Shown here: in pieces, positions 31,035-49,718 of the stretch
How positions within the stretch are numbered: position 1 is the first letter of the stretch
Layout: each line of letters starts with the position of its first letter
Assembly (NCBI GenBank): GCA_029572935.1
Contig: JAKQHM010000010.1
Coordinates: 10,218 to 74,217, forward strand
Direction of reading: 5' to 3'
Length of the DNA stretch: 64,000 nucleotides
Source of the DNA: Bacteroidota bacterium
GTDB taxonomy: Bacteria > Bacteroidota > Bacteroidia > Chitinophagales > Saprospiraceae
The notes under the pieces: model-generated
Told to the model about the DNA's origin: nothing
Seen by the model: the letters and a program-made list of their open reading frames with translations, nothing else
The model's database searches: none
Program-made: the position numbers and the translations under genes

Positions 31035-34000
31035 TTACATTTTTACGATCCTGATCTTACCCACCTGACCATCCTGACTCATCCAACTGGCCAGATAGAG
31101 ACCTGGAAGAAGGTCGCCTGCTTCGATCCGGTATTCAGTCAACCCAGGCCGGCAACTAAAGCTCTTCACCACCTTGCCACCGAGGTCAATTATCTGAAAA
31201 TGAAGTGGGGATGAAACGGGTTCTGAGAACCTCAGGGACAAATGATCTGAGAATGGCTGCGGGACCAGGCTCATCCATCCGGAATCTGATACATCCTGAG
31301 TTGAGGTGGCAGCTTCGCGGATCACAATGTTGTCCATCAGGGCAAAATCGCTTTTCTCCTCCTCAGGGGTTCCTGAAGGATCCAGTTCGCCCGTGATGGC
31401 TAGTGTCTGGATTTCCACCAGTTCAGTACCGTCGGGTATGGAAAGGGATATTTTTTCCTGTATCAACTGCCTGCTGGCTTTGCGAATGAATTCAGTCCCA
31501 AGGATCTGGCCCTCTGTATTTCTGAAAATCACTCTGCTGATCACAGCAAATTCGGGATCAATCCCCAGGGTACTGTAATCCTGATCTCCTAATTTTTGAA
31601 TCAGATCAAACTCCAGGAGCGGGTCAGACATTCCCTGGGTCTGGGCACACAAAAATACAGAAGTGACAAAGCGACTGTTGTTGTTCATAAAGGCAGCAGG
31701 ATCGGGATTGGTCCTGATCCGGGTCTGACCATTTGCCTCAAAGGCGGAACTGCCGGAAATGATTAAATAGCCTTCTCTCGGTTGACCGGGACCGGGAATT
31801 TGATGAAGACCAAAAGAATCCGTAAAAATCTGGATCTTTTCCCTGTTGTACGTTCCGTTTGTGAAGCTCTCCGGTTCGTCGCGGAAGGTATAATCAGCAA
31901 ACACGATCTGAAATCCTGCCTGGTTGTTGTTTAAAAAGGTATCTAGCGGCCAGACCAGACGAGCTGCTACCGTTTTGACACCAAAGAAATTTCTGGGTAT
32001 CTGAAAAGCTGAAGGTCTAAGCTGCAAGCCGGGATAGAGCGACCGGTTGGTCGTAAATTCATAGACGGCCAGGCTGTCATCAAATTTCATTTCCATTCTC
32101 AATTTACTGCCTGGAGGCACAACGGTACAGCCATTGTATGCAGCAACCAGGGATGCCCGATAGCCTTCAGCACTGGAAGGACAAGCAGAACCTGTCAGGG
32201 TAATCCGGACTATGTTGAAGTCGTGCTCCGTTGCATTCGGGTTCCGGGATAGCAAAAAAGTATAACGGTTATTGCTTGTGTCGCTGTCGCTGATCCCCTC
32301 CATTCGCACTGTAAACCGGACACCCCCTGCTCTGGTGATGACAGGTCTGGTTGAAAAGTTAAACAGAAAATAATCTCCGGGCGCCAGGCTGCGATCCAGG
32401 GTAAAATTTTCAGATACCGGTGGCAGGTTATCCTGTTGATAGGAAGCGGTAAACTGTGTGCCCGCAGGAATACTGACCGTACAGGAGTGGTTGATCAGCC
32501 TCGTGGGCAAATCCACACTGCCATCTTTACAAACCGTATATAATATCCTATCGGTCACCAGTTGAAGATCGTTCTCATTGGGGCCAGTACCCAATCCGAC
32601 GGCCTTCCATGCTTCAGCTACGTTTTTGTATTGATCTGAACACAGACCCCACCATTGTCCAATCATCTGCATACACAGATTGCGGGCATCCTGATAGGTG
32701 GAAGTTGGGGTCAGGAAATCCCTGAGTAAATGATAGGCAATGAGAGTGGCCGTATCGAAGCCCATGGGCCTCACCTCAAAGGACTGACTGCCTTCGTTGG
32801 TACCCTTTCCGCCTGAACAAAGTAAATAATACCAGTAATTGAGCACGCCGCTGTTGCTGTGCACCCCTCCATTGTCTGAACTGCTGGCTACCCAGGACCT
32901 GCCCCTGTAATATTTGGGATTGCTGAAACGGTTGGGATCCTCCATACTCCTGATGGCGGAGCCTGGGGTGGTGTAGATCTTACCGCCAATGAGCCAGTTG
33001 AAATTGGATTGATCGTAATAATATTCAATGGCCTTTCCAAAGATATCGCTGAAAGCTTCGTTGAGGGCACCTGATTCGTACAAATATTCCAATCCAGCAG
33101 TGAATTGTGTCACTCCGTGAGCGAATTCATGACCGACGATGTCCACGCTGGTGAAAGGAAGAACAGTGGTGCCATTGCCCAGACCAAAGTTCAGTGTTCT
33201 GAGATTGCCATCCCAGAATGCATTGCTGTATTTTCCGGTATCGAGCAAAATAGCCCTCGTGACCAGTCCGGCACCGTTCGCACCAATTCTGCCGTATCTG
33301 TTTTCAAAAAAATCATGAGTGACCTGTAAGCCCCAGAACAGATCATACACACCGTTTTTCTGGTCTGCGGAGCCTGCTTCCCAGTTGTTGTCGTCATCTG
33401 TATAAACCGCGCCATTCACTCCCTGCACCTGAATACCTCCTCCACGACTTTGGTCCCTGGTAACATACAGATTGTTTTCCCGGTCCGTTTCCACATCTTG
33501 CACTCCATGATAGAGTGTGTGCATGGTGCCAGGTTCTCCTGCGCAACTCATCAGGGTATTAATGTCGAGCAAAACACTTCCGTTTCGGGCATCAACGTAC
33601 ATCCTGCGACTTAAATGGGGTTCTTCCAGATGAATGTGCAACTCCCAGGCCAGCATATATGCACCCCCTGCCAATGGATAATTGCGGTTGATCAGGACGA
33701 GGCGATCTTCTGCGTCACTGTGACCGCTCAAATCATTTCTGGAAACAAACGGGATGGCCAAAAATTGCAGAGCTTTGGACTGAGCCGCTTCCCGGCTCAG
33801 AGCCGGGGTGAAAACCTCATCCTGAGGAGGAGCCACCAAGCCATTCACAGAGATCAGTTCTCCGTTTTTCTCGTGCACGATCAGTTGGCCGCCCAGCACG
33901 GGAAAGCCCTGAATCCATTGACTCATCCTGTGGTGACGCACGGCAGATTGATCGGTATAGACCTGCTTTGATTGCCATACTGCATCCATGGGAAAAATTT

Positions 34001-34175
34001 CATGAATGAGCAGGGGGATATCCTTTTCGGAAACCTTTTGGCCTTCCTCAAAACGGACCATCCATTGATCAGAATCCCCAGATGGATTGTTCTCCACATG
34101 ATAACGAAATTGAGCCTGAAGGAATGAGAACAAACCCAGACAAGCCGGCAGAACCAGTAGTAATTTTTTCATCAT
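31035..34175 (-). CDS. M4 (thermolysin-like) zinc metallopeptidase with a long C-terminal extension and a T9SS sorting domain
   Basis: 1046 aa with a signal peptide. The catalytic motifs are VGHEFAHGVT (HExxH), GALNEAFSDIFG and GGVHSNSGV. About 430 aa of beta-rich sequence follows, with CARDB-like strings (SDSDTSNN). The CTD is SLVPQPFSDHLSL...GLYLASW...IRIVKM. Confidence 0.85.
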   Translation of the reverse strand: MMKKLLLVLPACLGLFSFLQAQFRYHVENNPSGDSDQWMVRFEEGQKVSEKDIPLLIHEIFPMDAVWQSKQVYTDQSAVRHHRMSQWIQGFPVLGGQLIVHEKNGELISVNGLVAPPQDEVFTPALSREAAQSKALQFLAIPFVSRNDLSGHSDAEDRLVLINRNYPLAGGAYMLAWELHIHLEEPHLSRRMYVDARNGSVLLDINTLMSCAGEPGTMHTLYHGVQDVETDRENNLYVTRDQSRGGGIQVQGVNGAVYTDDDNNWEAGSADQKNGVYDLFWGLQVTHDFFENRYGRIGANGAGLVTRAILLDTGKYSNAFWDGNLRTLNFGLGNGTTVLPFTSVDIVGHEFAHGVTQFTAGLEYLYESGALNEAFSDIFGKAIEYYYDQSNFNWLIGGKIYTTPGSAIRSMEDPNRFSNPKYYRGRSWVASSSDNGGVHSNSGVLNYWYYLLCSGGKGTNEGSQSFEVRPMGFDTATLIAYHLLRDFLTPTSTYQDARNLCMQMIGQWWGLCSDQYKNVAEAWKAVGLGTGPNENDLQLVTDRILYTVCKDGSVDLPTRLINHSCTVSIPAGTQFTASYQQDNLPPVSENFTLDRSLAPGDYFLFNFSTRPVITRAGGVRFTVRMEGISDSDTSNNRYTFLLSRNPNATEHDFNIVRITLTGSACPSSAEGYRASLVAAYNGCTVVPPGSKLRMEMKFDDSLAVYEFTTNRSLYPGLQLRPSAFQIPRNFFGVKTVAARLVWPLDTFLNNNQAGFQIVFADYTFRDEPESFTNGTYNREKIQIFTDSFGLHQIPGPGQPREGYLIISGSSAFEANGQTRIRTNPDPAAFMNNNSRFVTSVFLCAQTQGMSDPLLEFDLIQKLGDQDYSTLGIDPEFAVISRVIFRNTEGQILGTEFIRKASRQLIQEKISLSIPDGTELVEIQTLAITGELDPSGTPEEEKSDFALMDNIVIREAATSTQDVSDSGWMSLVPQPFSDHLSLRFSEPVSSPLHFQIIDLGGKVVKSFSCRPGLTEYRIEAGDLLPGLYLASWMSQDGQVGKIRIVKM

Positions 34176-36607: not shown

Positions 36608-36709
36608 GGTGACTTGAGTGGCAACTGAAATACTCAGCATGGGAAAGGGTATGAATCCACTTTAAGTTCATCACCCGTTGTTTTTTGACCTTCCTTAGTG
36701 GACTGTCCG

Positions 36710-36717
36710 TATTTTTG
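36710..36717 (+). promoter_or_regulatory. -7 promoter box (TATTTTTG) 4 nt before the aminotransferase ATG
   Basis: TATTTTTG-TGAG-ATG (ATG at 36722), a leaderless-type spacing. Confidence 0.45.
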
Positions 36718-36721
36718 TGAG

Positions 36722-38218
36722 ATGGAAAACCACTTCAGGAAATTCAGAGAGGGCATTATCGGTATCGATCACAGTTTCGTCAACCCCTATGGAGAGACCA
36801 AAAGAATCGTATATGCTGACTGGACAGCCAGTGGCAGGATGTATGCACCTATAGAGCGCACCTTCCTCGAAGAAATCTATCCCTACGTGGCCAACACCCA
36901 CACGGAAACCAACAGTACGGGCAAACTGATGACCCAGGCTTATCATGAAGCCTTGCATACGATCAAAAAGCATGTCCACGCTTGCCCCGAAGATGTGATC
37001 ATTTCTTCGGATTCCGGCATGACCGGGGTCGTCAATAAATTTCAGAGAATCCTGGGCCTGAGGATACACGAAAAATTCAAACCCCTCGTGAATCTGAAAG
37101 AGGAGGAGCGACCGGTGGTGTTCATCACGCACATGGAACATCATTCCAATCAGACGAGCTGGCTGGAAACCCTGGCAGATGTGGAAATCATCAGGCCTGA
37201 TGAAAACGGACTGGTCGATCTCGGGCATTTTGCTGAATTGCTCCAGCGGTACCGCAACAGGGAATTCAAGATCGCAGCTGTGACTGCATGTTCCAACGTG
37301 ACCGGCATTCAGACGCCCTATCACACCATCGCCAGGATGATCCACAAGGAAGGAGGCTGTTGCTTTGTCGATTTTGCGTGCAGCGCTCCTTATGTTTCCA
37401 TCGACATGCATCCACCTGCCGAAGGCGAACACCTGGATGCGATCTACTTTTCTCCGCACAAATTCCTGGGAGGTCCGGGTTCGACAGGTATCCTCATTTT
37501 TCACAAGAAATTTTATAAAAACCGCATTCCAGACCATCCGGGAGGCGGGACCGTACTCTGGACCAATCCATGGGGTGAGCACCGCTATTACGACGATATA
37601 GAATCGAGGGAGGATGGTGGCACACCAGCCTTTTTGCAAACCATTCGGGCTGCACTGGCTGTAAAATTGAAAGAAGAAATGGGAGTAGATCCCATCCGGG
37701 AGCGAGAGCAATCCATGGTGGCCAGGATCTGGCCTGAGATCAATTCCATTCCGGGCCTGCATGTGCTTGAACCCGAAAAAGATCATCGACTGCCCGTTAT
37801 TTCATTTTATATCGATGGCCTGCATTACAACATGGGTGTGAAATTGCTCAACGACCGGTTCGGCATCCAGGTACGAGGAGGCTGCTCTTGCGCCGGCACC
37901 TACGGTCATTACCTTCTTCACATCGAAAGAGAATATTCTCATCATGTAACCTGTTTGATTGACCAGGGCAACTTTTCTGAAAAAGCCGGTTGGATCCGCA
38001 TGTCCCTGCACCCCACCAATACCGAAGAGGAAATGGACTTCATACTCGAAGCGATACGGGAACTCGCCCGCAAACATGCATCCTGGAGCGATGACTACCG
38101 CCTCGACAGAATCAACAATGAGATCTCATTTAAGAATCCAAACAGGGACAACTGGTCTTCCGAAAGGATAAAAGGACTCTTTCATTCTGAAAAAGCCCCA
38201 GTCATTCATAATTTATAG
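36722..38218 (+). CDS. Aminotransferase class V-fold PLP-dependent enzyme (cysteine desulfurase/selenocysteine lyase-like)
   Basis: Start at the internal ATG 36722 (MENHFRKFREGIIGID). The PLP-lysine context is YFSPHKFLGGPGSTGILIF and HHSN is present. Confidence 0.8.
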   Translation: MENHFRKFREGIIGIDHSFVNPYGETKRIVYADWTASGRMYAPIERTFLEEIYPYVANTHTETNSTGKLMTQAYHEALHTIKKHVHACPEDVIISSDSGMTGVVNKFQRILGLRIHEKFKPLVNLKEEERPVVFITHMEHHSNQTSWLETLADVEIIRPDENGLVDLGHFAELLQRYRNREFKIAAVTACSNVTGIQTPYHTIARMIHKEGGCCFVDFACSAPYVSIDMHPPAEGEHLDAIYFSPHKFLGGPGSTGILIFHKKFYKNRIPDHPGGGTVLWTNPWGEHRYYDDIESREDGGTPAFLQTIRAALAVKLKEEMGVDPIREREQSMVARIWPEINSIPGLHVLEPEKDHRLPVISFYIDGLHYNMGVKLLNDRFGIQVRGGCSCAGTYGHYLLHIEREYSHHVTCLIDQGNFSEKAGWIRMSLHPTNTEEEMDFILEAIRELARKHASWSDDYRLDRINNEISFKNPNRDNWSSERIKGLFHSEKAPVIHNL

Positions 38219-38605
38219 GTGATTGGCAATGGCCTTTGCTGTAGCAGCCATTTCGTCATCTGAAATTTTGACCCTTTCATTGGAAAAGTTCAGATCGCTG
38301 ATCTGATTCAGCGGCACCAAATGAACATGAGCATGAGGTACTTCCAGACCTATTACAGCCATGCCCACCTTGATACAGGGTACTTCTTTCTTAATGGCAA
38401 GCGCAATCCTTGATGCGAAATGCATTAATTCGTTATAATCCTGAGTCTCGAGATCAAAAATGTAGTCAACCTCCTTTTTCGGAACGACCAGGACATGCCC
38501 TTTGGCCAATGGTCTGACATCCAGAAAGGCAAAACAGGAATCATTCTCAGCTACCTTAAAACAAGGAATCTCTCCCCTGATGATGCGGGTAAATATCGAG
38601 GACAT
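38213..38605 (-). CDS. HIT family protein (histidine triad nucleotide-binding)
   Basis: Start at ATG 38605 (MSSIFTRIIRGEIP), directly after the greA stop. The HIT motif is HAHVHLVP. Confidence 0.9.
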   Translation of the reverse strand: MSSIFTRIIRGEIPCFKVAENDSCFAFLDVRPLAKGHVLVVPKKEVDYIFDLETQDYNELMHFASRIALAIKKEVPCIKVGMAVIGLEVPHAHVHLVPLNQISDLNFSNERVKISDDEMAATAKAIANHL

Positions 38606-38606
38606 A

Positions 38607-39080
38607 TCAGGCAGTAATTTCAAGTATTTCAAATGTCATCAATCCGGCAGGCGTCTGTATGTTTGCTGTATCTCCCACCTTTTTCCCCAGCAGTCCCTGT
38701 CCGATGGGTGAAGTGGCAGAAATTTTCATGACCTTCAGATCGGCTTCGGCTTCAGAGACAATTTTGTAAACCACTTCTTTTTTAGTTTTGTGATTGAGCA
38801 CTCTTACATTGGTCATGAGTACGACCTTTGAGGTGTCGATCGATGACTCGTCTATGATGCGGACATTGGCCAGTTTTTTCTCCAGGTCGTTTATTTTTAA
38901 TTCGAGCATGCCCTGAGCGTCTTTGGCGGCATGATATTCGGCATTTTCAGAGAGGTCACCCTTTTCCCTCGCTTCGGCTATTGCCCTGGCAACATCCTGT
39001 CTGCCGGTGGTCTTCAGAGTATCCAGTTCGGATTTCATTTTGTCGTAACCTTCCTGGGTCAAATAGTTGATTCCAGACAT
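38607..39080 (-). CDS. greA: Transcription elongation factor GreA
   Basis: 157 aa, YLTQEGYDKMKSELDTLKTTGRQDVARAIAEAREKGDLSENAEYHAAKD. Confidence 0.95.
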   Translation of the reverse strand: MSGINYLTQEGYDKMKSELDTLKTTGRQDVARAIAEAREKGDLSENAEYHAAKDAQGMLELKINDLEKKLANVRIIDESSIDTSKVVLMTNVRVLNHKTKKEVVYKIVSEAEADLKVMKISATSPIGQGLLGKKVGDTANIQTPAGLMTFEILEITA

Positions 39081-39100
39081 CTTTGATTGGTTTTATTGTA

Positions 39101-39141
39101 AAAAATAAAGAACGTTTCCCGTCGGTGACAGAAAACGTTCT
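39101..39141 (-). terminator. Intrinsic terminator closing the 48098-39204 operon
   Basis: AGAACGTTT (39109-39117) pairs with AAACGTTCT (39133-39141) around a 15-nt loop. On the minus strand it is followed by TTATTTTT. Confidence 0.65.
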
Positions 39142-39203
39142 TGACGTTATCTAATTAACTAATAACTTAATTCAGATCCATTTGGTTCCGCTTGAGACCA
39201 GAA

Positions 39204-40268
39204 TTAGAAATTCAGGCCTACTCCAATGGAATGGGATCCCTGAAAGGGGTTTGAATGGCGGTATCCGTAATCCAAACTCAACATGTTGTTTCCTTTTTTA
39301 TCTAAGGGAACATTGAGACTGGCTCCGGCAGCCAGGCCGGTGAATGCATTGTCACCTGCCCCTGCAGAATCACCCAATTCATAAGCATAGGAAGCGCGCA
39401 ACCCGAGGTATTCGCGGAATTTAAATTCGCCACCTACTCCGATCACATCTCTTCCAAAAGAATTGGAAGTAAAATTAGCGACTGGTGCCAGGACGAGATT
39501 CTCCCCGAAAATAAAATCGTAAGAAAGTCCGATATGCAAAAGAGAAGGAAGCTCAAAGCGTGACAACCTCACATCATAGGTAAGAGAGGTCCCTTCCGGA
39601 CTGGTCAATTGAGTAGAAAGACCATCGCCGCTAAACTTCATGGGGCTTCCAATATTACGGACTGCGATTCCCATTTTAAAATTATTCTGAGGCCCGGTGA
39701 CGTACTGTACACCGCCATCGATGCCAAATCCAAAAGCACTCAGGTCAGAAATACTTTCTGCAACACCTCTGACGAGTACTCCTACTGAAACCTTTTCTCC
39801 GAAATTGTGTGCATAACCCAAACCAAGGTTAAAGAAGTTTGGCTTGTAGGTAGCACCTGTTCCTTCGGGAGAAGCTGTAGTGGTGACCCTTATTTCCCCC
39901 AGGTCCAAAGCCATCAATTCAAAACCAAAGGCTCCATTTTCACCCACACGGGTGGCATAACCAAAAGCATTCACGCTTACGCCACTCGGAACGAGCCACC
40001 GGGTGTGACCTATCATGGCTTCAGACTTACGGATGCGTCCGATCCCTGCTACATTGACGCGGAGTGCTTCTACTCCACGTACATAGGAAGCGTTGAGCGA
40101 ATTCATGGCCATCCCTTTTGCCCAGGGATTGATCAGGAGTTCATAAGCTCCGGCTTCACCCTGTCTGTCGGGATTACCGGCCCACAACGTAGAATTTCCA
40201 AGACCGGCCAAGATCACAAAAAGAATGAGTATAGATTTTTTCATTTTTTCTTTTTTATTCTTGTTCAA
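39204..40268 (-). CDS. PorV/PorQ-family-like outer-membrane beta-barrel
   Basis: 354 aa (alternative start ATG 40244, MKKSILILF). It has a signal peptide, the N-terminal segment GEAGAYELLINPWAKGMAMNSL and alternating beta-strands. The terminal ..IGVGLNF has the aromatic C-terminus of OM barrels. It lacks the FSQY motif of PorP/SprF. Confidence 0.55.
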   Translation of the reverse strand: MNKNKKEKMKKSILILFVILAGLGNSTLWAGNPDRQGEAGAYELLINPWAKGMAMNSLNASYVRGVEALRVNVAGIGRIRKSEAMIGHTRWLVPSGVSVNAFGYATRVGENGAFGFELMALDLGEIRVTTTASPEGTGATYKPNFFNLGLGYAHNFGEKVSVGVLVRGVAESISDLSAFGFGIDGGVQYVTGPQNNFKMGIAVRNIGSPMKFSGDGLSTQLTSPEGTSLTYDVRLSRFELPSLLHIGLSYDFIFGENLVLAPVANFTSNSFGRDVIGVGGEFKFREYLGLRASYAYELGDSAGAGDNAFTGLAAGASLNVPLDKKGNNMLSLDYGYRHSNPFQGSHSIGVGLNF

Positions 40269-40320
40269 AAGAGCCGGGGGAGTCCATCAGTTTGGACCTC
40301 CCCGGCAGATAATTCTTTTA

Positions 40321-43300
40321 TTACAATCCGGAGGGGTCAAACTTCCTTGCCACACCAAACCACTTTACAATTTTCTCAGCACCCGTATCGGGTTGCTTGA
40401 TATAGATCAGATAAGCCCCGCTCGAAACCGGAATGCCCCTGAAATTTGTCAAGTCCCACTCGATATCCGGACCGATTTGTCGTTCGGTCACACCTCTGAA
40501 TTCGCTGACCACTCGCACAGGTTTTTCATCCCGATTGTATTCCTTGATGAATTTTCCATCGATAGAATAAATGGTCACCTGACACTTTGGTGGCAGATTG
40601 GTAATCTTGACGATATTGGAAAACTGACCGGATTCGTAGCTGGAGAAACCATAATACGGGTTGGGGACCACATTTACATTGTCCAGTGCGTTTTCATATT
40701 CTTCTTTGGTAGCCACCGCTCCGGCCTGCTTTCCTTCAATTTTAAAGGAATACATATTATGGCCCAAATTCTGATTGGTACCCACCGTAGGATTGTAGGG
40801 GTTATCTACCCTCAATCTGACGATGTAATCGTTGGGGATCAATCCTGTTTCTCCACTGCCGTAAGCGTTCAGCTTGGTACCAGGAGCCATTAATGGCATG
40901 GTGGTCCAGGTAATGAAGTCTCTGATCGCGCGGGTCAACAAGGCGGTTCCGGATCTTTTGCCTGGATTAGTATTATTGGCTAAAAATCCTCTGATCGCCC
41001 TGCAGGAATCATAAGGTGACCTGGTTACATAAACATAATGGTGACCTCCAAAAATCAGGCCCAGCAAGGACTGACTAAGTCCACATTCAGGATCCAAAAC
41101 TATCTGATCAGTAGGATTCCACATCAGATCATCACCGAGATTGCTCTGTTCGTTGATACAAGGAGCAGCAAGAAGGTTGACATCAGAGAAGAATGTATTT
41201 TCACCGAAGAAAATATTCAACCTTCTTCCGGTTTCCACATCGACCGCGTATCCAGGGAACCAGCCCATTCCGGTCAAGGGTCTGCCACTGCCATCCAGCT
41301 CGCCATCCGGATCGGCATAGCCATCTCCATCACGGTCATATTTACCTACGGAAGGTTTGGTCTTCAAGGAAAAGCAGTCATTTCCTGTATTGGGTTCAGT
41401 CCTTGCACTACCGGGATCTGCGTTGTTCTCATTCCATGTCTCGATCACCACACAACGGGACCATTTGGATTTATCGGAAGTGAAAACTATGTCGACATTG
41501 TTCAGGGAATCCAGCCTCATGGCATTGGAAGGAGTCCTGTTGGCACCGTTGGTCAGAGCAGGAGTAAGCAGTACAGTATCCACACAGAGTTTATAGGGGT
41601 ACCAGAATCCGCGGTACTCGTCTTTGCCCAATTTGCTGAACAACTCTTGTGGATCGAGAGCATACTGCAGCGATCCCAATGAAGTTTTCATGAAATCCGT
41701 GAAAGGCGTGTTGAAATCTGCCTGAGCGATAAACCACTCCACTCCATTGGGATTTTTATACTCAGCTTCCAGACCCGGGCCGATGATACCGTTTGATTCC
41801 AAAGGATTCTTTCCGGCCTCTTCCGTCTGAACCATTCCGACGGATATTCCCAGTTCGGAAATGATCTGCTCATTGAATCTGCTGATAGGACCTGTTGATT
41901 GAATTACTTTAGCCGGATCTGCCAGATTTTTCAGCGTCCAGGTCACAGGATCATCCAGTTTGTTGTTGTCCGGGATGGCATCCACAAATCTCACTTCATA
42001 TTCACCATCCTTTACTTTCAGCGGGTTGACCACTTTCACCTGTATGGGAGCCGATCCCGGTTGGTACTCTACTTTGCCGCCAAAACTTCCATCGAGAATT
42101 TTGTCATACATGCCATCTGCCAGTCGAAGGAAATTACCACCAGCACCCAAACCATCCAAACGGGTTACAGGGAGACCCTCACCGTACTTGGAATTAACGT
42201 TTTCATAGATCTGGGGTCTTGGCGTGACGACATAAGGTTTTCCATCGCCCCTGGGTCCAACATTCAGACGTCCCAGGCAGTATTGTATTCTTTGTCCTGA
42301 ACTTTCCTTGACGTCGTAATCCTTGTAGTTGTTGTAACTGTAGGCTACTACCAGGAAATAGTACTTTTCGTGGTTGACCAGTTGTTTGTTCAGGCCTGTA
42401 GCAAAAAGGTCTTCCTTTATGCTGAAAGAGTGTCTGATTCCTTCATCCAAACCACTCACTCTCTCTACGGGATAATAAACGATAGGATGCGTGACACTTG
42501 GATTGGGGTTTCTGACGCCGACCCAGTCGTACACCTTTTTTACCTTGTTCTTCAGGTCAACCGTCACCACTTCTCTTACGAGGCTGGGATCATTGAGTGC
42601 CCTGTCAGACAGGGAAACATCCGGACCAGACATCTGGAATATTCTGTAACCTTCAAAGCGATACAGTGAATCCACACCCGGAGGAATACCGAGTCCCGGT
42701 TCCATATGGCCTTCGTTAAAGTTGTTGGAAGCAGGATCGTTGCTCAAGAGAATGATGATCTCTTTGTCGAGTTCGACGAAGTCAACATCCGGAGCGGTAG
42801 GTCCATCCTTGATGTCAAAGCAGTTGTCAAACAGATCCTGACAAAGCTGGTCTGCTTTTAACAGTTCATCCAGGGCTGGACAAGGATAGTTCTGGTCAGG
42901 TACCCAAGGCACCCCGATGATCAATTCATTGACAGCGCCCGGATCCAGTCTGAGGGGGCCGGACACCTGCAGGGTCCTCCTGTCTCCTTCTCCTGCGGAG
43001 CTGCTACACATACTCCATCCGGCTCCATCGTTGGGTGCGCCGGGGAAAGCATATCGGGAGGCGGTACCGCCTCCTCCGGGAAGATATCCGATTCCACCAC
43101 TCACCAAATTGGTATTATCCCTCCAGCGGCCGGTGAGGTATTGGTAATATTCCAAAGCACTGGTGGGGTCCTCGGTAGCAGGTGGGTTAGATCCACCGAG
43201 ACCACGACCGTTGTAATACATGAAGTAGCTCATACCGAGCTCATCTCCATTTTCATCGAGGGGGCCACGGAAATAGTCTACACCCAGGATGGGGATATTG

Positions 43301-44427
43301 TTACAATAAGTATTGACGTTCTGATCACAGGTACAACCGTTGCTACCATCCGTTGCATCAATATTGTAGATGTACATGAGATCGCGGAATACAGGCTGAA
43401 ACTGAGTCGTATCAGATAATTTGCGACGCAATCCTACAAAAGTCGTATCGCAACCGATATAGTCATCACTGTAACAACCCAAATCCGGGTCAATCCACAT
43501 GGCGAAGTAACAATCTCTGATTTCCTGAGGAGCCCGGTTAATCAGCTTATACCTCTGGAAAGTCATGTCATTGAGTTCATCAGCCGTTCTGAAGCCGAAT
43601 GCCTGTACTTGTACCTCCATACGGATGGGGTCTCCTCCTGAACTGGTATGGATACCTCCCGCATCGTTGTAGATCCAGAAGATCATTTCGTCCGGATAGA
43701 TCCCGATGGGACATCCCCTGATGTCGATCACGGGATATTCTCCAAACTGGGGTTCATATATTCTGTTGTCGTTGATGTCGTCAAACAAGGCTAGACCCTG
43801 TCTGGCATCAGGTAATTTGAAGCCATATTTTGATTCAAAGAACTCATTGCCTTTGGCCGGCCAATATTCAAGGTCATCGGGAATCTCTGAACGATTGAGT
43901 TGGGACCTTCCTTCGCGTTGTGCGTTGGCCCATCTTTTTCTCAGTTCGGTGATGCTGTCTCCATAACAACGGAAAAACTGATCCCAGTTTTGACAATCTT
44001 CTGCCTGGGTTTCTCCCTGTTCTGTAAGCGGACCAGGCCAGCAATCGTTGCGGGTAGCAGAGCGATAAGTCTGTGCCATCAATTTGAGGGCTCCGGCTGG
44101 ATCGTATCCTCCTACCCACACGGCTCCAGCAAAAATGGAAGAAACTTCCAGCTTACCTGAACCGGCGACCACCTTGGGTACGATATAACGGCCCCTGTTG
44201 AGGTCCCACCAAACGTCCCCACCATTCAATAACCTGGCGCGAACGTTGTTGATATCCTGGTCAATTTGCTTGGTAGCAGGTGAACAGTTACCTTCTCTTG
44301 GCTGAAGCTGCCTGTTGCGCTGGGGTGTCTTGTTCAGATCCTTAGGCTGATGCCCGTATGCCCATGAACCGAGACAAAGGCTCAGAAGGGCCAGGATCAG
44401 GTACTTTTTTACTTGTATCAATTTCAT
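40321..44427 (-). CDS. Very large secreted hypothetical protein with a T9SS-like C-terminal domain; no catalytic domain recognised
   Basis: 1368 aa with a signal peptide (MKLIQVKKYLILALLSLCLGSWAYG). The N-terminal third is Cys-rich and carries a DRDGDGYADPDGELDG calcium-loop-like string. The C-terminus is VVPNPYYGFSSYE..VTIYSIDGKFI..SSGAYLIYI... Confidence 0.6.
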   Translation of the reverse strand: MKLIQVKKYLILALLSLCLGSWAYGHQPKDLNKTPQRNRQLQPREGNCSPATKQIDQDINNVRARLLNGGDVWWDLNRGRYIVPKVVAGSGKLEVSSIFAGAVWVGGYDPAGALKLMAQTYRSATRNDCWPGPLTEQGETQAEDCQNWDQFFRCYGDSITELRKRWANAQREGRSQLNRSEIPDDLEYWPAKGNEFFESKYGFKLPDARQGLALFDDINDNRIYEPQFGEYPVIDIRGCPIGIYPDEMIFWIYNDAGGIHTSSGGDPIRMEVQVQAFGFRTADELNDMTFQRYKLINRAPQEIRDCYFAMWIDPDLGCYSDDYIGCDTTFVGLRRKLSDTTQFQPVFRDLMYIYNIDATDGSNGCTCDQNVNTYCNNIPILGVDYFRGPLDENGDELGMSYFMYYNGRGLGGSNPPATEDPTSALEYYQYLTGRWRDNTNLVSGGIGYLPGGGGTASRYAFPGAPNDGAGWSMCSSSAGEGDRRTLQVSGPLRLDPGAVNELIIGVPWVPDQNYPCPALDELLKADQLCQDLFDNCFDIKDGPTAPDVDFVELDKEIIILLSNDPASNNFNEGHMEPGLGIPPGVDSLYRFEGYRIFQMSGPDVSLSDRALNDPSLVREVVTVDLKNKVKKVYDWVGVRNPNPSVTHPIVYYPVERVSGLDEGIRHSFSIKEDLFATGLNKQLVNHEKYYFLVVAYSYNNYKDYDVKESSGQRIQYCLGRLNVGPRGDGKPYVVTPRPQIYENVNSKYGEGLPVTRLDGLGAGGNFLRLADGMYDKILDGSFGGKVEYQPGSAPIQVKVVNPLKVKDGEYEVRFVDAIPDNNKLDDPVTWTLKNLADPAKVIQSTGPISRFNEQIISELGISVGMVQTEEAGKNPLESNGIIGPGLEAEYKNPNGVEWFIAQADFNTPFTDFMKTSLGSLQYALDPQELFSKLGKDEYRGFWYPYKLCVDTVLLTPALTNGANRTPSNAMRLDSLNNVDIVFTSDKSKWSRCVVIETWNENNADPGSARTEPNTGNDCFSLKTKPSVGKYDRDGDGYADPDGELDGSGRPLTGMGWFPGYAVDVETGRRLNIFFGENTFFSDVNLLAAPCINEQSNLGDDLMWNPTDQIVLDPECGLSQSLLGLIFGGHHYVYVTRSPYDSCRAIRGFLANNTNPGKRSGTALLTRAIRDFITWTTMPLMAPGTKLNAYGSGETGLIPNDYIVRLRVDNPYNPTVGTNQNLGHNMYSFKIEGKQAGAVATKEEYENALDNVNVVPNPYYGFSSYESGQFSNIVKITNLPPKCQVTIYSIDGKFIKEYNRDEKPVRVVSEFRGVTERQIGPDIEWDLTNFRGIPVSSGAYLIYIKQPDTGAEKIVKWFGVARKFDPSGL

Positions 44428-44441
44428 ATATCCGGAAGATT

Positions 44442-47400
44442 TTAGAATTCAAAAATTGCTCCTATGTAAATCCTTCTGGGCAGGGTATAGAAGTCTGGAT
44501 TCAGCAAAGCCCAGTTGTAAGAATCCTGAAAATAACTCAGGTATTGAGCACCATAAGTGTTGGTGACATTATTTAATTCATTGACTCCGCGGGATGAAGC
44601 CAGGTAACCGTCATCGGAAGCACTGCCTGATCCACGATACACACCAATGATGTTTCTCGTATCCAGAAGGTTTTGCACCCTTAAGTAAACGTTGAGGTTG
44701 AGCGGATGCTTGGCCCCTGGTTTGCTGAGAGAAACATATTTGTCCGCACGGAAATCGATATTGAAGTTCCAGGGTAATCTGGCACCGTTGATGTTTCCTT
44801 TGAATCCGGAACCGTCATACCTCACCACTGTAAGACCCGGTGAATAGGGACGTCCGGATGCAGTGATCAACAATAAATTCACACCCGTATTGGCAAAGAT
44901 GTCTACGCCACCAATTCTTGGGCCATTGTATTGTTTTCCGGAACCATAGCGATAATCCGCACTGAAGGAGAATCTGTGTCTTTCATCATAAGTGAAAGGG
45001 AAAATATTTCTGATGTTGATACCTCTTCCGGTCAGACCTTCCTGTGATCTGGCATCTGAACCTGTGCCGTCTGCAAACTGAAGCGTGTAGGCAGCATTGA
45101 ACTGGAAGTTATTGACCCTTCTCAGGTCATAGGTAAAGTTGAATCCCTTTACCGTTCCGAAGTCGAGGTTTCTGAAAGTATTGTACAAACCAACGGTAGC
45201 CACTTTACTCAGAGTGGTGATCTGGATCATATCCCTGAGCTCGTTGTAATAAGCAGAAAAGATAACAGAAGATGAGTTGGTAATCTTTTGCTGGAATCCT
45301 ACTTCGTAATCCACCTTACGGGAAGGTCTCAGGTTGCTGTTGGCGCTCGGCGTACGACCATTGATGTCCCAATAAAGGAAGTTAAGAGGCGTGAGGATGT
45401 TTTCACCCGTTGGTCTTTGAACGATGATATCATAGTGGGCGAAGAAGTTGGCTGCATCAGAAATCGGGAAAGAAAATGCGATACGGGGCATCCAGTTGAT
45501 CTGCGGCACATAGTCCTCAAAGGATTCGTCCACCTTGAAGTTGTTTCCGCGGATGGATCTCAGTGAATCCACTGGCTGGATGTAAGCTGGGTTCACCAGG
45601 TTGTTGTCTCCGAAGATAGCCAGTGAGTTGTTGGCAGGTGTGCCATTTGCAAAATACCACTGATCTCCGTTGCGATAAGCTTTCACATCTTTGGATCCGG
45701 GATCGGTCAGATAGACTTTATAATCATCTCCAATAGTGGAAGGTTTGGTGCTGCCTGTTTGGTCATGGAATGACCTGGCGCCAAGTATACCGTACAAACT
45801 ATAGGGATCTCTGAGCACTTTGGTGTTGGCATCGTAATAATCCACACGTCCTCCTACACGGAAGATGATGTCCTTGTAGGTGAATTTATCCTGCAGATAT
45901 CCTGCAACGTAAATTGGGGAGAAAGGAGCTACCGGGTAAGTCCTTCTTCCGTTAGCATCGCGCGCTGTGAAGAAATCGTCAAAAGTAACCCTGCCGGTTT
46001 GTCTCTTGCCCAGATAATCATAACCATTGAATCCGACAACACCCTGATCTGTCAATTCGCGCAAGGAGAACATATCCAGACTCAGCTGATTGGGGAGGAA
46101 ACGGTCGATGTCGGCATAAAGGTGTTTGGATGAATCAAACGGTACACCCGGGAACTGAAGATCTCTGATCCTTTGATAGAACTGACGATCTGACTGATCC
46201 AGAACCAGGGTATTGAACCTTGGCAAAATAGTAGGCGCACCATTTACATTGACGGTATCGTAGCCAATGATCTGAGTGGAGTCCACCCCTGTAATATGGT
46301 CGTTCTGATACAATCTGCCGAGCCTCCATAGGTCAAACGGAGCCAAAGTGTAACTGCTGTTTACGCTTTGTTCGAAAAGGATACCGAATTGGATGTTGTG
46401 GCGTCCTTTCTTGGATCCTCCCGGGATAAAGTCAAATCCTGAAGTGATTTGAGCGATGTATATATTGTTGTTGAATTGGGTATAGCGGTTGTACACACTT
46501 CCCACATTGGTATGGATACCTGACCAGATATCTGAGAAAGCTGTTGAGATATTTGAGTTAAAAGCCCTGTAGGCCTGGATATTGCCCGTATCTCCCTGGG
46601 GAATTTTGTTGTAATTGCTAAAGGCAGGATTGATCGTGCCTGGTGTATATCGAACAACCCTGTCGATATAACCCACATGGATGAGTTCTTCATTGCGCAC
46701 AGGCAGCCATTCCCTTTGAAATTGTGCCACATGTCCATGATTGAAGAAATTGTCGCCATGTCGGAAGTCTCTTTCTCCCCCTGTCCGGTTTTCATATCCC
46801 AACTGGATGGTGTAATAAGGGTTTTGAATGATGGATAATTTTTTACTGACTTCCTGTCCAGCCAGCGCTTCGGGTGACAGGTCCACCAGTTTGCCCAGCC
46901 TGTGTCTGAATCTCAGGTTTCCCCTCAGGGCCTGACGCTCCTGAATGGGATTATCTACCCAGTTCAGTAGTCTCCAAGATCCTCCTCCGATAAAATCTCC
47001 TCCGGGTGTAAAGCGATTGTTCACATTGGAAAAGGTACCTGAGACAGTCAGGTCGATATTCTGGCTGGGTTTGATGTCCAGTTTACCGGAAATGTCTATG
47101 GCTTCGTTCTGCTCGTTCAGGTTGTATTTGGAAAATTCCACATCCTGTCCTTCCGTAAGGAAATATCCATTGGTCACCGGATTGCCATTGAGCAGGGTGA
47201 TGGGGTCTTGAGTCAGACGGTTAATAGTGGACTCTTTTGCAAAATAGTCTCCGAATGCCGGAGGATCATCATCTTTCAGATAGGTGTACTGTCCTGAAAG
47301 TCTGAATCCAAGCAAGGTTCTATCCTTTTTCTTCCAGATGGGACCCGATACGTTACCACTGATAAAAGTATAACCATAAGGATCCAGATAATTGGAACTT

Positions 47401-48098
47401 TCTGCTTCCAAAGAACCGGCAAACTGAGATGAGGGGCCCTTGGTCACAAGAGAAATGATACCCCCTGTGGCGTCACCATACTGGGGCTCAAGTCCACCTT
47501 TGATCACAGTGACCTGTTCGATATCCACCGCAGAAGGAGCCCTTCCTGTGATCCTTACACCATCCAGAAAATATACCGTTCCATCCGTCCGGGCTCCCCT
47601 GATGGAGATATCTCCTCCGTCTACACTGGAGACACCCGATACTGTGGAGGCGATGGCGTTAATGTTCCTGGTACCCAGGGTTTTGATGTCCTCCGCTGTG
47701 ATGGTCTGGTCACTGGTGGTTTTGTCAATTTCGACAATAGGTTTGCGGTATTCCTTGATCTCAATGGCTTCCAGCTGGACACCCGATGAGATCTCAAAAT
47801 TAACCTTGGTCACTTTGCCACCTGTGACCCTTACGTTCTCAATCCTTTGGATATTGCTTTGGTAACCTGCTTCCACGTTGTAGGTACCGGGATCTACGAT
47901 GATGGAATAGTTTCCGTCAAAGTCTGTGACCGCACCGGTTATCAGAGAGGTACCCTTAAAGACCTTAACATAGGCGTTGATCAGAGGCTCCCCATTGTCT
48001 TTATCTACAACGGATCCTTCGATCTTGGCCTGTGCAAGCAAAACCGGGCCGGAAAAGGCCACAGCAACAAGAAGGATGAAAAATGATCTGAGATTCAT
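44442..48098 (-). CDS. TonB-dependent-receptor-type outer-membrane protein with a CarboxypepD_reg-like N-terminal domain (unusually long)
   Basis: 1218 aa with a signal peptide (..GPVLLAQA). It has KIEGSVVDKDNGEPLINAYVKV..DFDGNYSIIVDPGTYNV and the plug-like ITAEDIKTLGTRNINAIASTVSGVSS..ISIRGARTDGTVYFLDGVRI. The terminal residues are ..YIGAIFEF. Confidence 0.75.
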   Translation of the reverse strand: MNLRSFFILLVAVAFSGPVLLAQAKIEGSVVDKDNGEPLINAYVKVFKGTSLITGAVTDFDGNYSIIVDPGTYNVEAGYQSNIQRIENVRVTGGKVTKVNFEISSGVQLEAIEIKEYRKPIVEIDKTTSDQTITAEDIKTLGTRNINAIASTVSGVSSVDGGDISIRGARTDGTVYFLDGVRITGRAPSAVDIEQVTVIKGGLEPQYGDATGGIISLVTKGPSSQFAGSLEAESSNYLDPYGYTFISGNVSGPIWKKKDRTLLGFRLSGQYTYLKDDDPPAFGDYFAKESTINRLTQDPITLLNGNPVTNGYFLTEGQDVEFSKYNLNEQNEAIDISGKLDIKPSQNIDLTVSGTFSNVNNRFTPGGDFIGGGSWRLLNWVDNPIQERQALRGNLRFRHRLGKLVDLSPEALAGQEVSKKLSIIQNPYYTIQLGYENRTGGERDFRHGDNFFNHGHVAQFQREWLPVRNEELIHVGYIDRVVRYTPGTINPAFSNYNKIPQGDTGNIQAYRAFNSNISTAFSDIWSGIHTNVGSVYNRYTQFNNNIYIAQITSGFDFIPGGSKKGRHNIQFGILFEQSVNSSYTLAPFDLWRLGRLYQNDHITGVDSTQIIGYDTVNVNGAPTILPRFNTLVLDQSDRQFYQRIRDLQFPGVPFDSSKHLYADIDRFLPNQLSLDMFSLRELTDQGVVGFNGYDYLGKRQTGRVTFDDFFTARDANGRRTYPVAPFSPIYVAGYLQDKFTYKDIIFRVGGRVDYYDANTKVLRDPYSLYGILGARSFHDQTGSTKPSTIGDDYKVYLTDPGSKDVKAYRNGDQWYFANGTPANNSLAIFGDNNLVNPAYIQPVDSLRSIRGNNFKVDESFEDYVPQINWMPRIAFSFPISDAANFFAHYDIIVQRPTGENILTPLNFLYWDINGRTPSANSNLRPSRKVDYEVGFQQKITNSSSVIFSAYYNELRDMIQITTLSKVATVGLYNTFRNLDFGTVKGFNFTYDLRRVNNFQFNAAYTLQFADGTGSDARSQEGLTGRGINIRNIFPFTYDERHRFSFSADYRYGSGKQYNGPRIGGVDIFANTGVNLLLITASGRPYSPGLTVVRYDGSGFKGNINGARLPWNFNIDFRADKYVSLSKPGAKHPLNLNVYLRVQNLLDTRNIIGVYRGSGSASDDGYLASSRGVNELNNVTNTYGAQYLSYFQDSYNWALLNPDFYTLPRRIYIGAIFEF

Positions 48099-48249
48099 GT
48101 TTCTAAATGTTGGTTTACATTGATTAAAAAGCCTGCAATGTTAAGTAATTCCTAAAAACTGACATATAAGCAATATGCAAACCCTTTGTGATGACTCGGC
48201 CAAAAGAGACGGGAAAGGAGCCCATTTTTCAATACATCTAGTTTAAAAT

Positions 48250-48257
48250 CAAATATA
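48250..48257 (-). promoter_or_regulatory. Candidate -7 promoter box (TATATTTG on the minus strand) for the 48098-39204 operon
   Basis: The plus strand reads CAAATATA, about 150 nt upstream of the ATG at 48098. It is the only canonical box I see in the 355-nt upstream region. Confidence 0.3.
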
Positions 48258-48453
48258 TACATAATAATTTTTTAATCTTTTACCTTCAATAAATAATTCT
48301 ATTTTTTTGTCCTGAGTGACCCGGTCCCTGCCCTTTCGGAAGAAAACAAGGTTAAAGTCTTCTTAAAACCAAACGAAATGGGGACCGCTACGCTGCCCGT
48401 ATCCACGGAAAAGATCAGACTTTAACATTTGCATTCCTGCAAGAAGCTCATAG

Positions 48454-49374
48454 TCAGCTCCATTGACCCAATACCGATCGGGCGATGCGTTCCTTGGATT
48501 CATGAGTCCAACCTGCAATATGGGGGCTGAGCACCAGATTTTCCATTTTGTGCAGGCGATTGTAGATATCCTGCTCCTGAGGGGTATAACTATTGGGCCG
48601 TTCATTTTCAAAAACATCGAGACAGGCTCCCAAAATTTTACCGGTCTGAAGGGCATCCAGCAAGGCTAGGGTGTCCACCACCGGCCCCCTGGAAGTATTG
48701 ACCAGATAGAAAGGGGCTTCCATTTTTTCAATAAATTCCTTGTCAACCATATGCCGGGTCTCTTTTGTAAGGTTGACATGCAGACTGATGAGCCGGCAGT
48801 TGGATAATTGTCCGGGTCGATCGGCCTGAATAAAACGATCAGACTGTTTTTCCAACGCAACATAAGGATCGTAGGCGACAACGGTCGCACCAAATGCCAG
48901 AAGCAGATCTACGAGTTTTTTTCCTACATGCCCCAAGCCCAACACCCCAATCCGCATGGATCCCAATTCCGAACCCCGGTTCTCTTCCCTTTTCCAAATA
49001 TCCTTTCTCACCTGTGAGTCTGCTCTCGAAATATTTCGAAGCAGATTGAGGGCCATTCCAACCGTATGCTCAGCCACAGCTGTACTGTTGGCTTCCGGGG
49101 TGCTGATCACTTTTATTCCTTTGGAATGGAGATAAGGCACATCGATGGTGTCCATGCCTGAGCCCAGCCTGGCCACTATTCTAAGTCGCATTGCCTTATC
49201 TGCCAAAGACTTATCAATTCGTATCTTGGTATTTACGACCAGGCCTTCGTAGTCTTGCACACATTCATGTACCTCAGCCAAACTTATCTCCGGCAACCAG
49301 ACAACCTGGTGGCCCATAGATATAAATCCCTCCGGAAGACAGGGGTGTACGTCATCCGTGATGAGAATTTTCAT
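48454..49374 (-). CDS. D-isomer-specific 2-hydroxyacid dehydrogenase family protein (phosphoglycerate dehydrogenase-like)
   Basis: 306 aa. The NAD-binding motif is GVLGLGHVGKKLV, and the catalytic-region strings are NTSRG and SPHIAGWT. Confidence 0.85.
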   Translation of the reverse strand: MKILITDDVHPCLPEGFISMGHQVVWLPEISLAEVHECVQDYEGLVVNTKIRIDKSLADKAMRLRIVARLGSGMDTIDVPYLHSKGIKVISTPEANSTAVAEHTVGMALNLLRNISRADSQVRKDIWKREENRGSELGSMRIGVLGLGHVGKKLVDLLLAFGATVVAYDPYVALEKQSDRFIQADRPGQLSNCRLISLHVNLTKETRHMVDKEFIEKMEAPFYLVNTSRGPVVDTLALLDALQTGKILGACLDVFENERPNSYTPQEQDIYNRLHKMENLVLSPHIAGWTHESKERIARSVLGQWS

Positions 49375-49427
49375 ATTTTTTATCAGGAAATACCTTCCGG
49401 ATACCGGAAAGGCCTAAGACCAACAGA

Positions 49428-49718
49428 TTACTGTTCTGCTCCGCCGGTAGGGGGAACTATATCTGCAGGTGCAGGGATATCAGAAGCGGAACCGCTCAGA
49501 ATAGCAGCAAAAATGCACAATATGAAAAGTGCTGCTGCCAGATACCAGGTCAGCTTTTCGATAAAGTCGGCTGAGCGGGCAGCTCCAAACATCTGGTTTG
49601 CGCTCTGACCTCCGAAGGTGGAGTCAACTCCTCCTCCTTTTGGGTTTTGAATGAGTACAACTCCGATTAACAGGAGACAATCAAGGGCTATCAGTATGGT
49701 GACCAGCGTGACGAGCAT
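49428..49718 (-). CDS. secG: Preprotein translocase subunit SecG
   Basis: 96 aa with two TM helices and the motif VLIQNPKGGG. Confidence 0.85.
   Translation of the reverse strand: MLVTLVTILIALDCLLLIGVVLIQNPKGGGVDSTFGGQSANQMFGAARSADFIEKLTWYLAAALFILCIFAAILSGSASDIPAPADIVPPTGGAEQ

Follow-up and report, generated by a model that had tools for sequence, protein, structure and literature searches.

The window analysed here, a 64,000-nucleotide stretch of DNA from a Bacteroidota bacterium of the family Saprospiraceae (GenBank assembly GCA_029572935.1, contig JAKQHM010000010.1, positions 10,218–74,217 of the forward strand), carries three consecutive minus-strand genes, referred to as ORF1, ORF2 and ORF3. 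Their predicted products are a TonB-dependent transporter (TBDT), a large secreted protein and an outer-membrane β-barrel of the PorV/PorQ family (Table 1). The three genes are considered here as a candidate module in which ORF2 would be exported by the secretion system of type IX (T9SS), anchored at the cell surface by ORF3 and used as an extracellular partner by ORF1.

A previous, sequence-only reading of the locus had given the positions and sizes of the three open reading frames (1218, 1368 and 354 aa), a 14-nt spacer between ORF1 and ORF2 and a 355-nt non-coding leader before ORF1, all of which were reproduced exactly. The hairpin and T-run that it had placed 3′ of ORF3 were likewise recovered, at 39142–39108 on the minus strand, and are terminator-like. 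The figure of 354 aa for ORF3 counts from a TTG codon (ORF 39204–40268). Because this TTG, at 40268, sits within the T-run of the hairpin between ORF2 and ORF3, the true start of ORF3 is most likely the ATG at 40244, giving a protein of 346 aa that begins MKKSIL. With this start, the gap between ORF2 and ORF3 grows from the 52 nt first reported to 76 nt, which is also the median gap in the family. The neighbours of the module are greA, which lies downstream, and a dehydrogenase gene. No SusD gene is present at the locus, as had been stated: the gene that follows ORF1 is ORF2, which has no SusD-like Pfam match.

Table 1. Predicted features of the ORF1–ORF2–ORF3 module, in window coordinates.
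Feature	Position	Strand	Description
Leader	48099–48453	minus	355-nt non-coding stretch 5′ of ORF1; -7-type motif TAnnTTTG at 48250–48257
ORF1	44442–48098	minus	1218 aa, TonB-dependent transporter
ORF1 parts			signal peptide 1–23; CarboxypepD_reg 26–102; TonB-box-like segment 109–129; Plug 126–214; barrel ending ...GAIFEF
ORF1 TonB-box-like segment	47712–47774	minus	residues 109–129, LEAIEIKEY and KPIVEIDKTTS
ORF2	40321–44427	minus	1368 aa, β-rich, multi-domain and secreted; member of an uncharacterised superfamily
ORF2 N-terminal module	41983–44319	minus	residues ~37–815, conserved superfamily-wide; includes the DPDLGC..DD..GCD motif
ORF2 C-terminal body	40696–41982	minus	residues ~816–1244, variable half
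ORF2 C-terminal sorting domain	40324–40695	minus	residues ~1245–1368, type-A-like, closest to the PorZ and PorU sorting domains
ORF2 extra tail KWFGVARKFDPSGL	40324–40365	minus	invariant; beyond the normal end of the sorting domain
ORF2–ORF3 intercistronic hairpin	40266–40306	minus	13-bp GC-rich stem 40306–40273, then UCUUUUG
ORF3	39204–40244	minus	346 aa from ATG 40244, PorV/PorQ-family outer-membrane β-barrel, distinct subfamily
End-of-module hairpin and T-run	39098–39142	minus	16 pairs, 3-nt loop, before greA

Domain scans used Pfam and NCBIfam profile models with curated cutoffs, and NCBIfam matches were taken at E ≤ 0.1. In ORF1, Pfam identified a CarboxypepD_reg domain (46.3 bits, above cutoff) followed by a Plug domain (PF07715; 40.9 bits against a cutoff of 23.9), in agreement with the signal peptide, β-sandwich and plug described earlier. 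Between the sandwich and the plug, an alignment of 69 ORF1 orthologues, 40 of them displayed, reveals the TonB-box-like consensus L-(D/E)-E-V-V-V-x-E-Y-K-V-P-L-I-E-Q-D-N-T-T-S-G, in what we take to be the usual TonB-box arrangement of Bacteroidota transporters. The Pfam barrel models PF00593 and PF14905 had no match in ORF1 at E ≤ 0.1, and NCBIfam returned weak partial TBDT matches only; precomputed PF00593 or PF14905 matches are present in several ORF1 orthologues.

An AlphaFold2 (AF2) model of ORF1, built from a 120-sequence alignment, had a predicted local distance difference test score (pLDDT) of 89.1 and a predicted template modelling score (pTM) of 0.85. A Foldseek search with this model gave 192 matches in the Protein Data Bank (PDB) at E ≤ 1e-3, headed by PhuR, PfeA, YddB, FoxA, FhuA, FusA, HasR and TbpA (E 1e-26 to 1e-20). 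For the best of these, the alignment spanned the whole chain with target template modelling (TM) scores of 0.6–0.78. The SusC/RagA model TIGR04056 is absent from the NCBIfam matches of ORF1, and no SusC or RagA chain is among its top 50 fold matches. By its domains and modelled fold, ORF1 is identified as a genuine TBDT of the classical, not the SusC/RagA, type. As its best matches are classical TBDTs, it is taken to be a transporter of ordinary fold with long loops, rather than a new kind of barrel. The "oversized" barrel of the earlier description holds true for length, the barrel loops containing ~450 extra residues, and not for kind.

ORF3 was recognised by the PorV/PorQ family model NF033709 over residues 44–354 (354-aa numbering), with 115 bits against a cutoff of 90. 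It scored below the equivalog cutoffs for PorQ (NF033711; 58 bits, cutoff 220), PorV (NF033710; 46 bits, cutoff 250) and PorV2 (NF052325; 31 bits, cutoff 325). Similarly, seven divergent ORF3 orthologues scored 129–156 bits on the family model and never reached an equivalog cutoff. Since the family cutoff is passed and the PorV, PorQ and PorV2 cutoffs are missed, ORF3 is classed, on these profile scores, as a distinct PorV/PorQ subfamily. Two weaker matches accompany this assignment, to the Pfam PorV family (22.7 bits, the only Pfam match) and, by sequence in the PDB, to PorV 6h3i_F.

No FadL/Toluene_X-type model occurs among the Pfam and NCBIfam matches of ORF3, and a single orthologue matched BamG with 20.8 bits (cutoff 250). 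The sequence-only reading had set the PorV/PorQ family against a generic FadL transporter, and these scores uphold the former. The family model PorP_fam matched two of the seven divergent orthologues, with 19–22 bits against a cutoff of 90.55. The locus has no type-B arrangement: it includes neither a PorP/SprF-family barrel above cutoff nor an adjacent OmpA/PorE-like gene.

The C-terminus of ORF2 had been said to resemble a T9SS sorting domain, and comparison of its C-terminal domain (CTD) with known sorting domains, using an alignment of the last 129 residues from 23 ORF2 family members, agrees. The NCBIfam PorZ CTD model matched all 23 (best E 2.9e-9), as did TIGR04183 (best E 1.3e-5), and the PorU CTD model matched 21; of the Pfam families, FlgD_ig matched 11 and Por_Secre_tail seven. 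ORF2 aligns only to the CTD regions of the PorZ model (profile positions 665–751 of 757) and the PorU model (profile positions 993–1076 of 1095), and to no part of the PorZ double β-propeller or the PorU C25 peptidase body. The tail that extends beyond the CTD reads KWFGxxRxFDPSGL in the window and KWFGxxRxxDLxxF/Y in divergent branches. It is kept by full-length ORF2 paralogues and is missing from short paralogues of ~800–850 aa. These short paralogues retain the N-terminal module and end in an ordinary type-A-like CTD.

The CTDs of PorU and PorZ are not cleaved and remain bound to PorV and PorQ, and cognate PorV-like barrels have been proposed to shield CTDs from cleavage (PMC10202324). As the ORF2 CTD is closest to these retained CTDs, permanent anchoring is indicated rather than shuttling. 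Judging by its CTD, ORF2 probably travels through the T9SS. Elsewhere in the window, the host has a clear type-A T9SS cargo, encoded at 14366–17884 on the minus strand and matching TIGR04183 with 41.8 bits; this 1172-aa protein has no other NCBIfam family at E ≤ 1e-5. A thermolysin-type (M4) metallopeptidase of 1046 aa (31035–34175, minus), which has an FTP propeptide, also bears a weak T9SS sorting tail and is probably a secreted protease.

ORF2 belongs to a large superfamily. The N-terminus of ORF2 is signal-peptide-like by inspection (residues ~1–25), as is that of the family consensus, and in neither is there a conserved lipobox cysteine. Pfam yielded no family for ORF2 or for 27 homologues scanned with it, and the PDB, queried with a profile of the ORF2 family, contained no sequence relative. 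More than 2,000 full-length homologues were found, with 46–100% identity and mostly labelled Saprospiraceae. When 1.84 billion cluster representatives were searched exhaustively, 6,018 matched ORF2 at E ≤ 1e-3, and 1,289 of these did so at E ≤ 1e-30. ORF2 is thus no "orphan", as it had been called, but a member of a superfamily of ~6,000 clusters; that it lacks a characterised family was confirmed by the Pfam, PDB sequence and fold searches.

Conservation within this superfamily is concentrated in the N-terminal part. Many matches cover just the N-terminal ~770–840 residues of ORF2, and divergent members align to residues ~3–770/840 or ~37–815. Invariant positions include many Asp, Cys, His, Trp and Gly residues, and the DPDLGC..DD..GCD motif is invariant. 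In other branches, the variable half is exchanged for a BNR/Ycf48-type propeller or for cadherin/Big_9-like domains. Examples of the N-terminal module fused to such bodies, PSII_BNR/Ycf48-like or cadherin/Big_9-like, are found at loci L081 (8001–13064; P0391), L085 (8001–12569; P0307) and L091 (5316–9977; P0311), and one of these proteins carries the NCBI name 'YCF48-related protein'.

An AF2 model of ORF2 residues 45–1244 had a pLDDT of 87.9 and a pTM of 0.70. The model has no whole-fold relative in the PDB. Its best local matches, which were weak (TM 0.1–0.2), were to the β-supersandwich domains of dextran dextrinase, GH116, cellobiose phosphorylase and copper amine oxidase, and a viral structure library gave an FN3-like resemblance at noise level. 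Assignment of a function from fold matches of this quality was rejected. Neither a β-propeller nor a C25 peptidase is among the 50 PDB fold matches listed for ORF2.

A scan of the GTDB species representatives revealed at least 592 loci, of which the best 80 were analysed and 66 were informative, with room on both sides. The best 80 loci all come from Saprospiraceae, Lewinellaceae or unclassified Bacteroidota, and include the cultured Neolewinella, Lewinella, Membranihabitans and Phaeodactylibacter. ORF1, ORF2 and ORF3 keep their order and strand in 61 of the 66 informative loci; the remainder comprises paralogue arrays and lone paralogues, a locus that lacks ORF3 and another with a split alignment. 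The trio is also intact in eight of eight divergent branches that have the extended CTD, at ~30–40% identity and with the C-terminal half of ORF2 replaced; one metagenome-assembled genome (MAG) among these branches is labelled Chitinophagaceae. The extended tail is present in all eight divergent trio members. The two sampled superfamily members whose CTD is of the ordinary, short, type-A-like form have neither a barrel gene nor a transporter gene beside them.

The trio remains contiguous where its flanks have changed: greA is missing at L081, two genes are inserted at L087, and regulators are inserted upstream at L084 and L087. Such divergent branches separate linkage from mere synteny better, as far as gene order can tell, than do close relatives. 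Taken together, the co-occurrence expected by the earlier reading is found both in related genomes and in the divergent branches, and the gene orders identify the trio as a vertically inherited module throughout the Saprospiraceae lineage. The recurrent neighbours look housekeeping-like, most of them having been identified by reading sequences rather than by scan, and the module is therefore treated as three genes.

Some genomes have one or two extra ORF2 paralogues 3′ of ORF3, with one transporter and one barrel between them; such arrays are found at L012 (11240–17699), L022 (5583–8138) and L037 (3837–12008). Directly upstream of the transporter, two divergent branches encode a sensor histidine kinase of the Reg_prop/Y_Y_Y type together with a LytTR response regulator (L084, 1–3545; L087, 316–4084), a hint of substrate-inducible control as in polysaccharide utilisation loci. 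A partial ORF2 homologue of 985 aa (P0033; 63% identity) is labelled Vicinamibacterales (Acidobacteriota). As it lies on a contig of only 2,957 bp, a Saprospiraceae fragment in the wrong bin is the probable explanation, not an occurrence outside Bacteroidota.

The three genes had been read as one transcription unit, and the two junctions differ in how they bear on this. The ORF1–ORF2 junction, 14 nt here and 31 nt at the median, is unstructured in 60 loci. The ORF2–ORF3 gap contains a conserved terminator-like hairpin, which the sequence-only reading had not noted and which leaves a single transcription unit only partly supported. In the window, the minimum free energy (MFE) of this gap is -28.5 kcal/mol, with a z-score of -5.75; no fold as stable was obtained from 200 shuffled sequences. 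Across the family, 47 of 54 ORF2–ORF3 gaps have z ≤ -2, with a median MFE of -29 kcal/mol and a hairpin that starts ~13 nt past the ORF2 stop codon. The median z of 90-nt windows was -5.2 after ORF2, 0.0 after ORF1 and -3.2 after ORF3. Stems of at least 9 bp were found after ORF2 in 50 of 60 such windows, and a T-rich stretch follows in 27 of the 60; the signal after ORF2 is thus no weaker than the one after ORF3. The hairpin sequences are unrelated between loci, and it is therefore the structure, not the sequence, that is conserved.

Candidate roles for this hairpin are partial termination, attenuation or stabilisation of an mRNA 3′ end, and it may set the ratio of ORF1 and ORF2 to ORF3 expression. 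With a hairpin after ORF2 and an unstructured junction before it, ORF1 and ORF2 form the tightest pair of the module. Upstream of ORF1, a sigma-70 promoter scan was uninformative for this phylum. The Bacteroidota -7-type motif TAnnTTTG lies 159 nt before the ORF1 ATG; of 59 family loci, 17 (29%) have it 5′ of ORF1 against a background of ~10%, a weak enrichment. No Rfam family, whether a riboswitch or another RNA, was found in 38000–49500.

In the proposed scheme, Sec would carry ORF2 into the periplasm, from where it would cross the outer membrane through the T9SS by means of its CTD, which profile matches assign to the PorZ/PorU kind. By analogy with known systems and from its co-occurrence with ORF2, ORF3 would serve as the dedicated cognate carrier of ORF2 at the translocon, a carrier mechanism having been described for PorV (PMC10994853). 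ORF3 would subsequently act as a permanent anchor that holds the uncleaved CTD and its KWFG..R..D..L/F tail, as in the PorQ–PorZ and PorV–PorU pairs. Thus anchored, ORF2 may be the extracellular partner of ORF1. Its N-terminal module would provide a constant region that works or docks, and ligand specificity would come from the variable C-terminal half. ORF2 might then capture or process a nutrient derived from a macromolecule, possibly a glycan, for import by ORF1 with energy from TonB, and so fill the place held elsewhere by SusD, BtuG, HasA or TbpB.

The full model, in which T9SS-exported ORF2 is held on ORF3 by an uncleaved CTD and partners the transporter ORF1, is given a probability of about 0.5. 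Within it, the cargo–anchor relationship of ORF2 and ORF3 is more likely than the partnership with the transporter. A role in nutrient uptake, possibly of glycans, is weakly hinted at by the carbohydrate-active enzyme (CAZyme) β-supersandwich matches, the sensor kinases in two branches and the shared paralogue arrays. Four observations weigh against the model. The CTD of the window ORF2 itself scores 16.9 bits on TIGR04183, under the cutoff of 23 bits. Functionally unrelated genes are syntenic with the trio as well, namely greA (62 loci), HIT (53 loci) and the 2-hydroxyacid dehydrogenase gene (41 loci), so that synteny alone is weak evidence and could be explained by vertical inheritance. Given the conserved terminator-like hairpin, ORF2 and ORF3 need not share a transcript or a fixed ratio. 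Finally, the pointers to a substrate are thin: there is no riboswitch, the fold matches have TM scores of 0.1–0.2, and sensor–regulator pairs occur at two of the eight divergent trio loci.

The synteny of greA, HIT and the dehydrogenase gene, together with the hairpin between ORF2 and ORF3, is also what would be expected if the trio formed no functional unit, its genes being mere neighbours in a stable, vertically inherited chromosomal region. This explanation is quite improbable: changes in the flanks (L081, L084 and L087) leave the trio contiguous, the CTD tail accompanies the trio in eight of eight divergent branches while the two members without the tail lack the partners, all three products are predicted outer-membrane or surface proteins, and the cargo–carrier logic of ORF2 and ORF3 is known elsewhere. 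It is unlikely, for different reasons, that ORF2 and ORF3 are a lineage-specific pair of T9SS components that replaces or adds to PorZ–PorQ or PorU–PorV and may, for example, attach or modify cargo, with the transporter a mere conserved neighbour. The ORF2 CTD does best match the two T9SS components that retain their CTDs, ORF3 scores slightly higher with the PorQ model than with that of PorV, nearly the whole lineage has the module as a core element placed among housekeeping genes, and the many invariant Cys, His, Asp and Glu residues of ORF2 are enzyme-like. However, outside the CTD the ORF2 body matches neither the PorZ nor the PorU model, and its listed fold matches include no propeller or C25 domain. 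The variable C-terminal halves and paralogue arrays resemble environment-facing diversification, and the tightest coupling is between ORF1 and ORF2, not between ORF2 and ORF3.

A surface role without transport, with ORF2 anchored by ORF3 as an adhesin, a part of a sheath or surface layer, or a gliding or predation appendage, would suit the β-rich character and FN3/Ig-like resemblance of ORF2 and the cadherin/Big_9-like or propeller domains of some branches. Attachment of T9SS adhesins to dedicated barrels is moreover known in Saprospiraceae, GhpA–GhpB/C of Aureispira being an example (bioRxiv 2024.01.29.577165). Such a role is nevertheless rather unlikely. The N-terminal ~800 residues contain dozens of invariant polar and Cys residues, unlike repetitive adhesins; the transporter is tightly and invariably coupled to ORF2 down to ~30% identity; and ORF3 is of the PorV/PorQ family rather than the adhesin-type PorP/SprF family, with no PorE/OmpA-like gene adjoining. 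The very tight coupling of ORF1 and ORF2 could also mean that ORF1 works outward, exporting or assembling ORF2 before ORF3 anchors it, in the manner of Oar, which has the same order of N-terminal extension (NTE), plug and barrel and is needed for protein secretion in Myxococcus xanthus (PMC6434023). This is very improbable, since the NTE–plug–barrel order is the commonest TBDT layout in Bacteroidetes and not diagnostic, M. xanthus has no T9SS and offers a different setting (PMC6434023), and ORF2 already has a T9SS-type sorting domain and a T9SS-type carrier barrel. The idea that ORF1 is a special Oar-like exporter was rejected on the first of these grounds, the shared layout being generic.

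Two further features of the window lie outside the module. A 363-aa ORF without a family match (36695–37786, minus) is antisense to a class-V aminotransferase gene (36698–38218, plus) and is most likely a shadow ORF. A 403-aa protein encoded at 27500–28711 (minus) matches the ExtI porin model weakly over its full length (30 bits, cutoff 150) and is a possible outer-membrane porin.

Saprospiraceae are abundant polymer degraders in wastewater, soils and marine particles, and how they capture substrates at their surface is poorly known. If the proposed model is correct, Bacteroidota can equip a non-SusC transporter with a large T9SS-delivered partner in place of one delivered by the lipoprotein route, and type IX secretion would be physically coupled to TonB-dependent import. 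Dedicated carrier barrels for type-A-like CTDs would then exist beyond PorZ–PorQ, which bears on the choice between cleaved and retained CTDs, and T9SS cargo–carrier pairing would have a third rule, beside those of general PorV with type A and of PorP/SprF with type B. A very large unannotated superfamily of ~6,000 clusters would be placed in a functional setting for the first time. For the study of carrier–cargo specificity, a clean system is available in the invariant C-terminal tail and the matched barrel subfamily.

In the open-access literature, no paper was found that describes the trio or dedicated PorV/PorQ paralogues. That the trio represents an unrecognised class of TonB-dependent uptake, core to Saprospiraceae, in which a T9SS-exported partner is permanently docked by an uncleaved, tailed CTD on its own PorV/PorQ-family barrel, is a serious, if rather doubtful, possibility. 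What sets the trio apart is the combination of a type-A-like CTD, a putatively dedicated PorV/PorQ-family barrel and a non-SusC transporter; the two underlying ideas, a surface partner for a TBDT and a dedicated barrel for a T9SS cargo, are separately known.

Among T9SS proteins, the closest parallels to ORF2 and ORF3 are PorZ–PorQ and PorU–PorV of Porphyromonas gingivalis, in which an uncleaved type-A-like CTD is held on a PorV/PorQ-family barrel (PMC10202324); for ORF2, such retention is proposed. Unlike PorZ and PorU, ORF2 has a body related to neither propellers nor a C25 peptidase, and ORF3 scores too low for either the PorV or the PorQ equivalog. In addition, ORF2 and ORF3 are neighbouring genes coupled to a transporter, and they differ from the P. 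gingivalis pairs in the extra CTD tail of ORF2, its variable C-terminal halves and its paralogue arrays. A cargo gene beside the gene for its own carrier or anchor barrel, often with a third envelope protein, is found in SprB–SprF, PG1035–PorP–PorE and GhpA–GhpB/C of Aureispira (PMC12618676; bioRxiv 2024.01.29.577165). In contrast to these type-B sets, the trio has a type-A-like CTD, a barrel of the PorV/PorQ rather than the PorP/SprF family, and a TBDT as third partner instead of an OmpA/PorE peptidoglycan anchor. According to recent work, type-A CTDs are all recognised by PorV (PMC12618676).

On the transporter side, SusCD, RagAB, BtuB–BtuG, HasR–HasA and TbpA–TbpB resemble ORF1–ORF2 in that a TBDT gene is followed by the gene of a surface protein that captures substrate or caps the barrel. 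Unlike those partners, which are lipoproteins or free hemophores, ORF2 has no conserved lipobox, is proposed to be delivered by the T9SS and would be held by a separate barrel; unlike SusCD and RagAB, the module has a transporter that is not SusC/RagA-type and no SusD gene. The P. gingivalis pair IhtA–IhtB was considered as a precedent, with IhtB as a T9SS cargo paired with a TBDT; a review calls IhtB a lipoprotein, and this pair is not relied on. Oar of M. xanthus, tied to the secreted protein PopC, is like ORF1 a TBDT with a CarboxypepD_reg extension, but acts in secretion and in an organism that has no T9SS (PMC6434023). The pair BamG–BamH of the Bacteroidota BAM complex offers a structural counterpart to ORF3–ORF2: the FadL-like BamG holds a large extracellular protein by its extracellular loops, and the paralogous BamG2 and BamH2 are encoded in a putative operon (PMC12578637). 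BamH, however, is a surface lipoprotein without a CTD and BamG is of the FadL/Toluene_X type, whereas ORF2 ends in a T9SS-type CTD and ORF3 belongs, by its profile matches, to the PorV/PorQ family.

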